The translations under genes were made by a program, and so were the position numbers. Below are positions 928-4,974 of a DNA stretch of 15,371 bases, piece by piece. Origin of the DNA: a virus (taxonomy: Duplodnaviria > Heunggongvirae > Uroviricota > Caudoviricetes); IMG/VR virus record IMGVR_UViG_2579778778_000003; one strand, written 5' to 3'. Position 1 is the first letter of the stretch, and every line of letters begins with the position of its first letter. The notes beneath the pieces were generated by a model that was not told where the DNA came from, did no database searches, and worked only from the letters and a program-made list of their open reading frames with translations.

Positions 928-1419
928 ATGACGGCTATTCGTGAAACAGCCCAGATTGCAAAACTAATGAACGAGGCAAAAACTCAAGCTGAAGTAAATG
1001 CGGCTATTGGTGAGCTGAACTCAAAGCTTGCGTCTATTCAGCGCGAATGCGTGTCTCTCGTTGAACTGGTGGGCTCTTATCAAGAAATAAATGCTTCTCT
1101 CAAAGCTAAAATTGCAGAATTCGAAAACTTTGAGGCTCAGACGGAAGGCTATATCCTTAACCAACTTGAGTCGGGTACTTTTGTATACTCGAAGGAGGTA
1201 ATCGTGAACGGTGGCAGCATAACCATGCATCTTTGCCCAAAATGTTTTGGACAAAAGATAGTATCGATACTTCAACCATTCCCGGTTAGCGAAGATGAGC
1301 TTTTTCATAAAAGCAGGTGCCTCCACTGTGAAAATAAGTTTCTGATGAATAAAAATCCGGATTACGTATCGCCTCCATCCATTGAGGAGTTGTCCAGAAA
1401 ACTTAACGGCAATCTGTAG
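928..1419 (+). CDS. hypothetical protein, ~163 aa: N-terminal predicted coiled coil plus C-terminal CxxC...CxxC zinc-ribbon-like domain
   Basis: ATG at 928 (alternative in-frame GTG at 904 with AAGAG 9 nt upstream); TAG stop at 1417-1419. N-terminal half is heptad-like and Ala/Glu/Lys/Gln-rich; C-terminal half has CPKC, 24 residues, CLHC. The upstream part of track ORF 640-1419 starts at TTG and is low-complexity, so is excluded. Confidence 0.5.
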   Translation: MTAIRETAQIAKLMNEAKTQAEVNAAIGELNSKLASIQRECVSLVELVGSYQEINASLKAKIAEFENFEAQTEGYILNQLESGTFVYSKEVIVNGGSITMHLCPKCFGQKIVSILQPFPVSEDELFHKSRCLHCENKFLMNKNPDYVSPPSIEELSRKLNGNL

Positions 1420-1544
1420 ATTACTACTGTTGTGGATACCGTGGCATTTGAAGAGAAGTATGGCTCCCAGCTGGAGCTGATATTTCGTTTTATCGATCGC
1501 GCACTGGCGATTGGTGTGCTGGCCTGATTTTGTGGAGAAAGTTA

Positions 1545-1928
1545 ATGCGTGATATTCAGATGGTTCTTGAACGTTGGGGAGCGTGGGCGGCTAATAATCA
1601 TGAAGATGTGACCTGGTCGTCCATTGCCGCCGGTTTTAAGGGATTAATTCCTTCAAAAGTAAAATCTCGCCCGCAATGTTGTGACGATGACGCGATGATC
1701 ATTTGCGGGTGCATGGCCCGTCTGAAAAAGAACAACAGCGATTTGCACGATTTATTAGTAGATTATTATGTAGTCGGTATGACATTCATGTCACTGGCAG
1801 GTAAGCATTGCTGCTCTGATGGTTATATCGGGAAAAGGTTACAGAAGGCTGAGGGCATAATTGAAGGGATGTTAATGGCATTAGATATCCGGTTAGAGAT
1901 GGATATCGTTGTTAATAACTCTAATTAA
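1545..1928 (+). CDS. quuD: late-gene antiterminator Q (QuuD / phage-82-type Q family)
   Basis: 127-codon ORF from ATG 1545 with GGAG 7 nt upstream; Cys-rich segment ([12 protein letters not shown]); sits where Q is found in DLP12-type prophages, upstream of nmpC and the lysis cassette. Identity recognised from memory of DLP12 QuuD, not verified by search. Confidence 0.75.
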
Positions 1929-1950
1929 TATGCCAATTGTTTACTGAAAG

Positions 1951-1979
1951 TTATTAAAAATGGGGCGTTGCAACGCCCC
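1951..1979 (-). terminator. intrinsic terminator for nmpC / IpeX
   Basis: Perfect palindrome GGGGCGTTG-CAACGCCCC (1962-1979) followed on the minus strand by ATTTTTAATAA. Confidence 0.6.
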
Positions 1980-2117
1980 CAAAAATAAAGGGTAATATAT
2001 AACAGAAGGTTTATATAGTTAGAAGCAAGGTTGTGCTCCTAAAGGAAGTGGCTTGAGGGAGCCACTTATATGTTGGGGAGGCAACGCCTCCCGCAACATA
2101 TCTTTTTCGTAATCAGA
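1951..2117 (-). ncRNA. ipeX: nmpC 3' UTR with three hairpins; candidate IpeX-like sRNA
   Basis: On the minus strand, directly after the nmpC stop: hairpins at 2076-2092 (GGGAGGC/GCCTCCC), 2046-2067 (AAGTGGCT/AGCCACTT) and a perfect 18-bp palindrome at 1962-1979 followed by a U-run. The ~167-nt span matches the reported size and position of IpeX downstream of nmpC in DLP12. Confidence 0.45.
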
Positions 2118-3215
2118 TTAGAACTGGTAAACCAGACCTACAGCAACGATGTCATCAGTGCTTACACCGAGTGCTTTAGTGAAGTCATTTTTGTCAAGCA
2201 GGTTGATTTTGTAATCAACGAAAGTAGACATATTTTTGTTGAAGTAATAGGTTGCACCTACATCAACATATTTGACTAAGTCCTGATCGCCCCATACTCC
2301 AAGATCCTTACCTTTAGATTGCAGGTAAGCAACGGACGGACGCAGACCGAAATCGAACTGATATTGTGCAACAGCTTCGAAGTTTTGAGCTTTATTAGCA
2401 ACGAAGTGATCAGCAAATACAGTCATATTCTGGGTTTCAGAATAGGTAGTGGCCAGGTAAATGTTGTTAGCGTCATATTTCAGACCTGCGGCCCAAACTT
2501 CTGCATTTTTACCGGAAGCAAATACTTCAGGAAGAACTTTCCCTGCATTAACTTGAGTGTCGGTACGATCAGATTTCGCATAAGTTGCACCGATACCGAA
2601 TCCTTCGTATTCATAGGTAGCAGAGAAACCGAAGCCATCACCGTTACCTTCGGTGTAGTTATCGAAATCGCTACGATCGTTTTTGCCTTGGTACTGAGCA
2701 GCAAAGTTCAGACCATCAACCAGACCAAAGAAGTCGTTGTTACGATAGGTTGCAACACCAGTGGTGCGACCAGTCATGAACACATCTGTTTGGGTCCAGG
2801 TATCGCCACCGAATTCTGGCAGAACGTCAGTCCACGCACCGATGTCGTATGCTACACCGTAGTTACGGCCGTAATCGATTGAGCCGTAGTCACCGAATTT
2901 CAGGCCTGCAAATGCAAGACGGGTTTTGTCTTTGGAGGAACCTTGAGATTCAGCGCGGTTGCCTTTGAATTCATATTCCCACTGACCGAAACCAGTCAGC
3001 TGATCGTTGATTTGGGTTTCGCCTTTGAAGCCCAGACGAACATAAGTAGTATCACCATCATCTGCATCGTTAGAGGAAAAGTAGTGCTTGGCATTAACTT
3101 TCCCGTACAGATCCAGCTTGTTACTGTCTTTATTATAAATTTCAGCTGCCTGAGCAGACATCGCCATCAGTACTGATGCAGCTACAGCAGAAATTGCCAC
3201 TGTTAATTTTTTCAT
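2118..3215 (-). CDS. nmpC: outer-membrane general porin NmpC (OmpC/OmpF/PhoE family), full length with signal peptide
   Basis: 365-aa ORF; signal peptide [23 protein letters not shown] then AEIYNKD; C-terminal VYQF; AGGG Shine-Dalgarno upstream of ATG at 3215; matches NmpC as remembered. Confidence 0.93.
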
Positions 3216-3544
3216 CGTGAGCCCTTTTTTTTGAACTATTATTAAAAAATGATGTCACTGCGCGATAAATATTCATCTAATCAATGTGATTATTTCAAGA
3301 TGTAAGTTTTAGTTTCTCATTTAATTTGTGAAGTAGATCTCTATTTTTATCTGAACTTTTTCTATCGAAACCTATTTATGGCTCTTATTTGAACAAAAAT
3401 AAATCTATTAGCTAATTTATATTAATGGCTGTTATTTATGGTGGTTCTATAATTCGTCTGTTTAATTTAAACCGGCTAAAAATAACACTGGAAATTATTT
3501 ATTGGTTATTTGTTGAGGTTTTCTTATGTATTTGTGGTGATGTT

Positions 3545-3573
3545 TTGAACACTCGGTAGCATTCTCATAAATA
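3545..3573 (+). promoter_or_regulatory. candidate sigma70 promoter (TTGAAC, 17-bp spacer, TAAATA), possible pR'-equivalent late promoter for the lysis cassette
   Basis: -35 TTGAAC at 3545-3550, 17-nt spacer, -10 TAAATA at 3568-3573; about 230 bp upstream of the holin start, with a terminator-like structure between. Confidence 0.35.
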
Positions 3574-3692
3574 TCATTCAGTGGTTTACGTACGTAAAAA
3601 ATTGGTTATGCTGTTAAGAGTGGTTACTTCGTCACACAGCTTAAACCCGCCGTCGAGCTGGTTTTTCCATTTTTTGAGTCTCGATATTAGCT

Positions 3693-3750
3693 GATAACTC
3701 AATACCTGAGTTATTCACTGACTCGGAGTCAGTTACGTTTCTGCTTTTTT
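3693..3750 (+). terminator. candidate tR'-like terminator or leader structure ahead of the holin
   Basis: Hairpin GATAACTCA...TGAGTTATT (3693-3715), palindrome CTGACTC-gg-GAGTCAG (3718-3732), then T-run at 3745-3750. The stem-to-T-run spacing of ~12 nt is longer than canonical. Confidence 0.3.
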
Positions 3751-3803
3751 GCGATACGTTGTATTCCCTCAATTTACACCCGCTTTGTCTGCGAGGTGGG
3801 GTT

Positions 3804-4019
3804 ATGAAATTCATGGATAAGTTAACAACTGGAGTCGCCTATGGCACCTCAGCAGGTAGTGCCGGTTACTGGTTTTTACAGCTGCTCGATAAAGTCACTC
3901 CCTCACAGTGGGCAGCAATAGGTGTGCTGGGTAGCCTGGTATTTGGCCTGCTGACGTACCTGACAAACCTTTATTTCAAGATTAAAGAAGATAAGCGCAA
4001 GGCTGCGAGAGGTGAATAA
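3804..4019 (+). CDS. essD: class II holin (pinholin, phage 21 S family) with dual-start motif
   Basis: ATG at 3804 with GAGGTG SD; second in-frame ATG at 3813 (M-K-F-M, the antiholin/holin dual start); product [25 protein letters not shown]... has two TM segments and a charged C-terminus; stop overlaps the endolysin start (TAATG). Confidence 0.9.
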
Positions 4020-4516
4020 TGCCTCCATCATTACGAAAAGCCGTTGCTGCTGCTATTGGTGGCGGAGCAATTGCTATAGCATCAGTGTTAATCACTGGCC
4101 CAAGTGGTAACGATGGTCTGGAAGGTGTCAGCTACATACCATACAAAGATATTGTTGGTGTATGGACTGTATGTCACGGACACACCGGAAAAGACATCAT
4201 GCTCGGTAAAACGTATACCAAAGCAGAATGCAAAGCACTCTTGAATAAAGACCTTGCCACTGTCGCCAGACAAATTAACCCGTATATCAAAGTCGATATA
4301 CCGGAAACAACGCGCGGCGCTCTTTACTCATTCGTTTACAATGTGGGTGCTGGCAATTTTAGAACATCGACGCTTCTTCGCAAAATAAACCAGGGCGATA
4401 TCAAAGGCGCATGTGATCAGCTGCGTCGCTGGACATACGCTGGCGGTAAGCAATGGAAAGGCCTGATGACTCGTCGTGAGATTGAGCGTGAAGTCTGTTT
4501 GTGGGGGCAACAGTGA
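4019..4516 (+). CDS. rrrD: SAR endolysin (signal-anchor-release lysozyme, T4-lysozyme fold, phage 21 R family)
   Basis: 165 aa; N-terminal Gly/Ala-rich weakly hydrophobic SAR segment ([20 protein letters not shown]); E, D and T catalytic residues in [19 protein letters not shown]; translationally coupled to the holin. Confidence 0.92.
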
Positions 4517-4974
4517 GCAGAGTAACCGCGATTATATCCGCTCTGATTATCTGCATCATCGTCAGCCTGTCATGGGCGGTCAATCATTACCGTGATAACG
4601 CAATCGCCTACAAAGCCCAGCGCGACAAAAATGCCAGAGAACTGAAGCTAGCGAACGCGGCAATTACTGACATGCAGATGCGTCAGCGTGATGTTGCTGC
4701 GCTCGATGCAAAATACACGAAGGAGTTAGCTGATGCGAAAGCTGAAAATGATGCTCTGCGTGATGATGTTGCCGCTGGTCGTCGTCGGTTGCACATCAAA
4801 GCAGTCTGTCAGTCAGTGCGTGAAGCCACCACGGCCTCCGGCGTGGATAATGCAGCCTCCCCCCGACTGGCAGACACCGCTGAACGGGATTATTTCACCC
4901 TCAGAGAGAGGCTGATCACTATGCAAAAACAACTGGAAGGAACCCAGAAGTATATTAATGAGCAGTGCAGATAG
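4513..4974 (+). CDS. rzpD: i-spanin Rz
   Basis: GTG start at 4513 overlapping the endolysin stop; N-terminal TM helix then coiled-coil periplasmic domain; product recognised as lambda Rz ([11 protein letters not shown]...EQCR). Confidence 0.85.
4733..4915 (+). CDS. rzoD: o-spanin Rz1 lipoprotein, embedded in the +1 frame of Rz
   Basis: 60-aa ORF wholly inside Rz; lipoprotein signal with lipobox VVGC; proline-rich mature part; matches lambda Rz1. Confidence 0.85.

Follow-up and report, generated by a model that had tools for sequence, protein, structure and literature searches.

In phage lambda, the late genes are served by pR', an always-active promoter that yields a short terminated leader, the 6S RNA, ending at tR'; read-through of this terminator depends on Q and carries transcription into S, R and Rz. 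Stx phages of the 933W/H-19B type have their late promoter directly after Q: TTTACG-16-TATCAT is annotated in their records as pR' and CCCGCcgatgGCGGG plus T7 as a rho-independent terminator, and the annotated pR'/terminator sits at the very end of the Q gene. The Sakai Stx phages have been mapped by dRNA-seq and Term-seq, which placed the pR' start and the 3' end of its transcript 258 nt apart (Sy et al., PMC7547250). On control of the lysis operon of the E. coli prophage DLP12 by Q and RpoE, PMC7918800 refers to Rueggeberg et al. 2013, 2015; it gives the promoter region as cloned from '-121 to +650'.

Here we compare these systems with a stretch of viral DNA in which Q and the lysis genes are separated by a porin gene. 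The window (the whole stretch of DNA that was analysed, 15,371 nucleotides of IMG/VR virus record IMGVR_UViG_2579778778_000003) is a lambdoid phage late region. Between positions 1500 and 4100 its identity is 99.9% with phage PhiR29_1 and 96% with the segment of phage 434B that derives from DLP12; both phages carry the region, and 434B is viable and plaque-forming. The spacer between nmpC and essD is found, at a coverage of at least 80%, in 2,355 of 5,426 complete E. coli genomes. If the assignment made below is right, the Q-responsive late promoter of this very common prophage region can now be given specific bases.

The probable late promoter module downstream of nmpC

The genes that frame the control region are the following.

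1545..1928, + strand: Q antiterminator gene, 127 aa, Q21/933W family (Pfam PF06530, E = 8.5e-54)
2118..3215, - strand: nmpC/ompD-type porin gene (PF00267, E = 1.8e-156), cargo between Q and the late promoter
3804..4019, + strand: S21-type holin/antiholin, the first late gene
4019-4516, + strand: SAR endolysin, downstream of the holin
4501-4974, + strand: Rz, downstream of the endolysin

Pfam matches across the lysis genes are PF04971, PF00959 and PF03245. The holin has dual starts at 3804 and 3813, as annotated in the homologous 434B record, and the window Q also matches the solved Q21 structures 6jnx and 6p18 (phmmer, E = 7.6e-8). Up to residue 126, the Q of Stx phages is 79% identical to the window Q. 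DNA homology to the Stx-phage arrangement runs through the Q gene, breaks near 1877-1904 and picks up at 3584, which delimits an inserted block around nmpC from ~1905 to 3583; the equivalent gap in Stx phages is only ~45 nt. At the far side of this block, a sensitive DNA search matched window 3584-3666 to the end-of-Q region of ~290 Stx-phage records with 76-77% identity, and PhiR55_1 is 85.5% identical over the same positions. The matched bases are those annotated as pR' and terminator in the Stx-phage records, and they give the features below.

3585-3590, + strand: -35 hexamer TTTACG, aligned to the annotated 933W-type pR'
3585..3598, + strand: 14-bp perfect dyad TTTACGTACGTAAA, overlapping the -35 TTTACG, candidate Q-binding element by its co-variation with Q
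3607..3612, + strand: -10 hexamer TATGCT, aligned to TATCAT of the 933W-type pR'
3615..3645, + strand: nearly invariant start-site and initial-transcribed block TAAGAGTGGTTACTTCGTCACACAGCTTAAA, conserved across Enterobacterales
3619, + strand: predicted transcription start, A of TAAGAG, +/-1 nt, transferred by alignment from Sakai Sp5
3643..3666, + strand: conserved promoter-proximal hairpin and T-run at the tR' position, AAACCCGCC-GTC-GAGCTGG-TTTTT in the window allele

We consider it likely from these alignments that 3585-3666 is the late promoter module pR' of this phage, a copy of the one that the 933W/H-19B-type Stx phages carry immediately behind Q. First, 3584-3666 aligns base for base with the annotated and mapped pR' of the Q21/933W family. 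Second, a cognate Q of the PF06530 family lies upstream on the same strand. Third, the holin, SAR endolysin and Rz genes (3804-4974) follow the module, also on the same strand. The module belongs to the known 933W/H-19B/DLP12 late-promoter family.

Promoter consensus scans alone were unable to decide between the candidate promoters of the spacer. TTTACG and TATGCT are separated by 16 nt and match the consensus at 8/12 positions, including A2 and T6, a score that by itself is not above chance in the spacer. The TAnnnT pattern of the -10 is kept in nearly all of the listed variants, and hardly anything varies between the -10 and the hairpin, whichever type of Q is present; TGTTAAGAGTGGTTACTTCGTCACACAGCTTAAA forms a nearly invariant block in the alignment of the window with Stx phages. 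Mosaic breakpoints occur just 5' of the -35 and right after the T-run, at which point the sequences part into four or more unrelated continuations, and because they flank the module on both sides, a unit of ~85 bp is what is conserved. Across Enterobacterales, the block 3615-3645 is conserved at 127 loci from viral contigs and 28 from genomes; its positions +1 to +27 are invariant among the loci compared, and its core occurs once in the window, at 3615. The module is also present in Yersinia, Serratia, Kosakonia, Trabulsiella, Ewingella, Citrobacter and other Enterobacterales.

Our search of the literature found no transcript mapping for the window locus or for DLP12, and the start is taken from the Sakai phages. 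Counting 257 nt on from the homologous A of TAAGAG in Sakai Sp5 leads to the final T in the T-run of the second terminator. Since the 258-nt transcript length fits this A, the start is placed there, which by alignment would put the start of the window transcript at A3619, +/-1 nt. Counted from A3619, the first T-run ends after 48 nt and the holin start codon follows after 185 nt. The same transcript length puts the start inside TAAGAG, which rules out TAAGAG as a pause element of the kind formed by TAAGCTG in phage 21. The best -10-like stretches in the block, TGGTTACTT and TACTTC, are poor matches, and there is no clear TATAAT-like pause element; TGGTTACTT (3621-3629) is the sole candidate for a sigma-dependent pause element. 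RNAalifold predicts a 5' RNA hairpin GUGGU/GUCAC (3620-3635), which has no compensatory changes. A search of 1400-4100 against Rfam returned a single chance snoRNA match and nothing else.

The proximal hairpin differs between alleles. The window allele has T3659 where relatives have G, which creates a stem mismatch; the alternative stem CAGCTT/GAGCTG has a folding energy of -6.5 kcal/mol and yields no terminator call. The corresponding sequence of the K-12-type allele, AAACCCGCcgtcgaGCGGGTTT with its T-run, reaches -12.0 kcal/mol and is the only terminator-like site in the spacer. T3659 is tolerated, since it is common to 20 loci and the isolated phage PhiR29_1. A hairpin with a T-rich tail lies at +24 to +58 in 71 of 75 unique leaders and is built from at least eight different stem sequences (for example CCTCGC/GCGGGG, CCTCG/CGAGG, CCCTGTCA/TGACGGGG and CCTCA/TGAGG). 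That so many different stems preserve it across the 75 leaders supports selection for the hairpin structure. Within close relatives, RNAalifold found no compensatory pairs in the hairpins; support came with more distant genera. Transcripts of the window allele may terminate at the proximal hairpin. In Stx phages this hairpin is not the main stop, because the mapped 3' end is the second terminator 258 nt downstream (PMC7547250). A homologue of StxS, the last 74 nt of the 258-nt pR' transcript, with its 3' end at the second terminator, is absent from the window, where homology to Stx phages ends at 3666. One further structure precedes the holin.

3777..3798, + strand: hairpin CACCCGC...GCGAGGTG, which in the minimum-free-energy fold would pair with the holin Shine-Dalgarno

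This hairpin persists, with wobble pairs and changes on one side of the stem, in leaders placed before another holin.

The dyad over the -35 and the gap between Q and pR'

The dyad TTTACGTACGTAAA occurs once in the window, at 3585. At least ten different palindromes occupy the same centre in the relatives, 15.0-15.5 nt upstream of the -10: by group, they include TTTACGTACGTAAA (window), TTTACGATCGTAAA (933W), GCGTACGC, GCGGTCCGC and TGGAATTCCA, with TGTTATAACA, TGTAATTACA, ATTCGTTACGAAT and TCGGCCCGA as further examples. The type of palindrome and the Q cluster, with clusters cut at 70% identity, correspond one to one (Mantel r = 0.88, a value reached by 0 of 2000 permutations), and the correspondence holds at distances from Q between 42 nt and 2.9 kb. 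Inside each cluster, conservation of the dyad reaches 90% or more, and the flanks on both sides are variable. This behaviour makes the dyad at 3585-3598 a candidate Q-binding element, an assignment that draws on comparative sequence data; linkage, instead of binding, could be a partial cause of the co-variation.

Scanning a viral-contig collection with the core pattern of the module gave 120 further loci. A Q of the PF06530 family, 45-100% identical, lies upstream of the module on the same strand at every locus with enough upstream DNA (103/103); no Q was detected at 24 loci, each of which offers less than 1.6 kb upstream of the module. The gap that follows Q is 42-75 nt in 25 loci and 0.6, 0.8, 1.1-1.7, 2.3-2.5 or 2.9 kb in the others. 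Diverse cargo fills it, mostly on the opposite strand: lipoproteins, the porin, a GIY-YIG nuclease, a KAP NTPase with a match to the candidate defence family PDC-S20, and an HNH protein that matches PDC-M68A. Since many unrelated cargo genes occupy the same gap elsewhere, the order of Q, cargo and pR' is a recurrent arrangement and is not peculiar to nmpC. The first-pass annotation had proposed that nmpC was inserted between Q and its target promoter, rather than downstream of the terminator as are the stx genes, and this is borne out by a module that follows nmpC at 1.66 kb from Q. Cargo can lodge on either side of pR': downstream, like stx, or upstream, where Q has no control over it. The side on which it lies would determine whether its expression occurs in the lysogen or awaits induction. 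Two loci are of separate interest. In a recombinant (L013), a foreign Q and its dyad are joined to a DLP12-type leader. In Lambda_ev087, where a related Q is followed by a lipocalin gene, no copy of the module was seen in the 3 kb examined.

A more general reading seems to us quite possible, and we put it forward tentatively. The Q proteins of the 933W/DLP12 branch would recognise a dyad-symmetric site centred ~27.5 bp upstream of the start, over the -35, unlike the tandem direct repeat recognised by Q21. The site would come in at least ten interchangeable classes, each dyad staying with its own Q, and the stretch from the -10 to the terminator would remain constant. The gap between Q and pR' would be a general insertion site, since Q acts in trans, and would accommodate 0.6-2.9 kb of reverse-strand cargo, including porins, lipoproteins and candidate anti-phage defence genes. 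Such loci form a natural swap series, with many Q variants, their own dyads and one invariant transcribed region, and are usable to decode how Q reads DNA.

Other candidate promoters and terminators

A different position for the Q-responsive promoter follows from the work on DLP12 itself. The forward primer given in PMC7918800 maps to window 3143, and its coordinates would set the +1 of essDp near 3264, ~355 nt upstream of the start predicted here. A sigma-E-like motif, GAACT-N16-TCACT, is present at 3233-3259. Were this the promoter on which Q acts, 3585-3666 would be merely a terminator region that its transcripts cross. The cited control by Q and RpoE, the primer-derived +1 and the motif beside it are consistent with such a role, but the position is itself deduced from primers, and the sequence is part of the nmpC block and missing from all other Q/module pairs. 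Those Q proteins that have been studied load at a binding site beside a sigma-70-dependent pause close to the promoter, and it is 3585-3598, not 3233, that holds the dyad which tracks Q. We regard essDp as an unlikely target of Q. The comparative evidence places the Q-specific site at 3585-3598, which appears to differ from the position that the DLP12 work implies. If the dyad is what Q reads, the published sigma-E-dependent essDp would not be the loading site of the DLP12 Q, and it may be a separate, Q-independent input beside the module. The text files of PMC7815308 give no essD start sites or 3' ends in E. coli K-12, and a mention of essD in a riboswitch-screen paper proved irrelevant.

The first-pass annotation had proposed a Q-dependent late promoter, a leader and a tR'-like structure adjoining the holin, and had assigned them to the features listed here.

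3545..3573, + strand: TTGAAC-17-TAAATA, the promoter first proposed, unsupported as a Q target
3693..3733, + strand: hairpin B (3693-3715) and hairpin C (3717-3733), the proposed paired hairpins, which are leader features
3741..3756, + strand: 16-nt block CTGCTTTTTTGCGATA carrying the proposed T-run (3745-3750), deleted in relatives

The general layout stands; the named hexamers, hairpins and T-run do not, as the conserved promoter lies 40 bp downstream of these hexamers and the conserved hairpin and T-run lie ~80 bp upstream of this T-run. All of the letters are present: TTGAAC at 3545-3550, a 17-nt spacer, TAAATA at 3568-3573, the two hairpins and a T6 run at 3745-3750, followed by the holin Shine-Dalgarno and the starts at 3804/3813. 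What fails is their assignment to promoter and terminator. A late promoter at 3545-3573 would start near 3580, with hairpins 3693-3733 and the T-run at 3745-3750 as tR'. The 17-nt spacing, which had earned this site the description of a well-spaced sigma70 promoter, is real, but its strength is not above chance: TTGAAC matches TTGACA at 4/6 positions and TAAATA matches TATAAT at 3/6, without the final T (-7), a total of 7/12, and the site is absent from the calls of a promoter scan. The spacer 3216-3803 has 33% G+C and holds six + strand sites of at least 8/12, compared with 14.5 +/- 3.8 in dinucleotide shuffles; since even these better sites are fewer than expected, a 7/12 site in the spacer is at chance level. 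The hexamers become TTCAAT and CAAATA in K-12-type relatives and in 434B, and the DNA 5' of 3584 is missing from every relative without nmpC, though those relatives encode related Q proteins.

The structures proposed as tR' compare no better. Hairpins B and C are perfect in the window allele, at -8.2 and -8.4 kcal/mol, the best point in favour of this placement; the common alleles have one mismatch in each and reach -3.4 and -3.8 kcal/mol, and SfII-type leaders have a different sequence at this position. The T-run begins 11 nt past hairpin C, and the 16-nt block that carries it is deleted in K-12-type alleles (14 viral-contig loci) and in phage 434B, and hence in viable relatives. A terminator scan of the + strand from 3216 to 3810 called no terminator-like site in the window allele, and the fold of the whole leader is only moderately above shuffles (z = -2.1). 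As far as sequence comparison can tell, the promoter and terminator first named are not the conserved functional elements, and we hold a late promoter at 3545-3573 with its terminator at 3693-3750 to be very improbable. The hexamers sit at -74 to -46 relative to the predicted start and might, speculatively, be at most AT-rich upstream DNA that helps the actual promoter.

The interval flagged by the first reading does contain what is probably the late-control element, a functionally important one.

The conserved 85-bp block could also be read as a mere recombination linker between phage modules, with no promoter function here. Mosaic junctions at both of its edges and at least one recombinant (L013) fit this description, but the published 258-nt distance places the start of the Stx-phage pR' within the homologous block (PMC7547250), and conservation is of a promoter-like kind, in the -35 with its dyad, TAnnnT, the start site, the hairpin and the T-run. 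The roles of linker and promoter are in any case compatible, and a linker devoid of promoter function has very little to recommend it. A late promoter directly after Q (1929-2117), from which late transcription would run antisense through nmpC, has next to no probability: this is the usual position in lambda, 21, 82 and 933W, as is well established, but no + strand promoter-like site is called in 1929-2117, where the called terminator belongs to the nmpC strand and so points the opposite way, the dyad and core are single-copy in the window (3585 and 3615), and Stx homology jumps from Q to 3584.

Proposed mechanism and comparison with known systems

With pR' at 3585-3666, late control in this phage can be modelled as follows. 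A sigma-70 RNA polymerase would start at about A3619 from TTTACG-16-TATGCT, and in the absence of Q its transcripts would stop at the proximal hairpin and U-run, as a leader of ~48 nt, or at some later point of the untranslated leader, which is 185 nt long. The early operon, 1.66 kb upstream, would supply Q (1545-1928), which would bind the 14-bp dyad over the -35 and load onto polymerase held at a pause within the invariant stretch of first transcribed bases. Once modified, the polymerase would resist termination, and the whole late operon would be expressed, beginning with holin, endolysin and Rz. The nmpC gene, which lies on the opposite strand and has a promoter and terminators of its own, would occupy the gap between Q and pR'; Q, being a diffusible protein, would still reach a promoter that is not adjacent to its gene. 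For these steps we draw on homology, the linkage to Q, the pattern of conservation and the co-variation of dyad and Q cluster established here, and the start site and constitutive activity come from the papers on homologues. Binding of Q to the dyad and its engagement at a pause site are what this combination would predict.

DLP12 essDp: the published promoter lies in the same nmpC-essD spacer as the window module, and is reported to be sigma-E-dependent, in contrast to the sigma-70-type module at 3585-3666.

Phage 82: only the general mechanism of Q is common to this phage and the window, and the Q82 family differs from the Q21/933W group. The phage 82 pause element has an extended -10, GCC at +15 to +17 and a pause at +25. 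Elements of this type had been suggested near 3560-3600; the features of 82 are absent from 3560-3645, and the window Q matches only PF06530/Q21, so that a late promoter of the phage 82 type is rejected.

Lambda: the logic is the same as in the window. Q-lambda is of an unrelated family (PF03589), the leader is ~194 nt and the sequences are dissimilar.

Phage 21: the pR'-QBE-SDPE-tR' region of this phage (6P18, 6JNX) is served by a Q of the same family as that of the window, PF06530, although the two proteins differ in length (162 aa in phage 21, 127 aa in the window) and align over residues 8-87 alone. The layout is alike: in phage 21 the Q site lies in the promoter, a pause element in the first transcribed bases and a terminator at ~+50 (annotated from +3 to +50), and the candidate elements of the window take corresponding positions. 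An S21-type lysis cassette comes next in both. The two modules have no DNA homology, and the Q sites differ in form. The site of Q21 is a tandem direct repeat, ATTGAGCA and AATGAGCA, between the -35 and -10, at -27 to -12; the candidate site of the window is a dyad at -34 to -21, over the -35. Partial matches to the Q21 motif TGAGCA were seen by eye at 3546-3551 (TGAACA) and 3556-3561 (GTAGCA) and were discarded: their spacing is 10 bp, not 8, and they are unconserved.

933W/H-19B Stx phages: the closest likeness is to the pR' annotated in these phages as "putative late promoter PR'", the unit that yields the StxS RNA, with 76-77% identity over 83 bp. Common to both are the -35 TTTACG, the dyad TTTACG(A/T)(T/A)CGTAAA, a TATxxT -10, the TAAGAGTGGTTAC start region, a CCCGCC...GCGGG hairpin with T-run and a homologous Q (79%). 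The differences lie in what surrounds these elements. The module overlaps the 3' end of Q in Stx phages, whereas in the window it is 1.66 kb downstream of Q, past nmpC. The hairpin of the window is mismatched, unlike that of the Stx phages. A second terminator and the 74-nt StxS part follow in Stx phages and neither is found in the window, where homology ends at the T-run. Cargo takes opposite positions as well, with stx downstream of the module and nmpC upstream of it. The control region of the window is an ordinary and widespread one, like that of DLP12 and 434B, of a familiar kind that lies unusually far from its own Q gene.

Predicted RNA hairpins of the late leader

A hairpin is predicted at each end of the late leader.

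3620-3635, + strand: possible RNA hairpin GUGGU-UACUUC-G(C/U)CAC at the extreme 5' end of the late transcript; invariant
3777-3798, + strand: hairpin CACCCGC...GCGAGGTG, whose predicted pairing would sequester the holin Shine-Dalgarno sequence

The sole variation observed in the first is a change from a G-C to a G-U pair. The second is retained in leaders of the SfII type, with wobble and one-sided changes; because it is kept there ahead of another holin, translational control of the holin through this structure is suggested. Between the two lies the conserved terminator hairpin of the pR' module, the window's late promoter (3584-3666). Position 3659, within its 3' arm, is T in the window versus G in most relatives. 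T3659 disrupts the stem, so that the fold drops from -12.0 to -6.5 kcal/mol, and allows CAGCTT to pair with GAGCTG as an alternative stem. Twenty loci and phage PhiR29_1 have this allele in common, and in every case it is accompanied by the perfect form of hairpin B (3693-3715), further along the leader.

Candidate signals flanking nmpC, and cargo in other phages

Two G+C-rich hairpins separate the end of Q from the 3' end of nmpC, and two promoter-like motifs lie on the other side of the porin gene.

1962-1979: first Q-nmpC hairpin, T-run on the - strand
2062-2100: second Q-nmpC hairpin, a long palindrome, ATATGTTG..CAACATAT around GGGAGGCAACGCCTCCC
3232-3265, + strand: sigma-E-like motif TGAACTA-N16-TCACT, immediately 5' of the nmpC start codon
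3425-3453, + strand: ATGGCT-17-TATAAT in the nmpC-essD spacer, its -10 hexamer perfect

The first hairpin, with its T-run, looks like the nmpC terminator. The primer coordinates in PMC7918800 point to a position near 3264, at the sigma-E-like motif, for the +1 of the published DLP12 lysis promoter essDp; the 933W-type promoter lies 355 nt further downstream. Other phages carry diverse cargo between Q and the late promoter, for the most part on the reverse strand (L026 and L103, gap about 1.4 kb; L054, 0.8 kb; L006; L005). A KAP NTPase with a match to candidate defence family PDC-S20 (E = 1e-177) is one example; others are an HNH protein with a match to PDC-M68A, a GIY-YIG nuclease and small lipoproteins.

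Exchange and constraint at the late promoter

Enterobacterial phage module copies in genome contigs labelled Chitinophagaceae, Chryseobacterium, Bacillota and Erysipelotrichaceae (L131, L136, L144, L153) are probably contaminating enterobacterial DNA, and the match in L151, an Actinobacteria MAG, has no promoter upstream and looks like chance. The viral contig L013 is a natural recombinant, with a distantly related Q (46% identical) and its own GCGTACGC dyad. Since it joins this foreign Q and dyad to a DLP12-type leader and holin inside the nearly invariant start-site block (3615-3645), that block evidently acts as a crossover point, the dyad remaining with its Q. In 933W-type phages (L002 1198-1214; L129), the A-rich upstream region, -35 and dyad of pR' encode the last Q codons, and the stop codon lies within CGTAAAAAT. 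The window retains the same dyad as non-coding sequence, so the constraint on it is at the DNA level.
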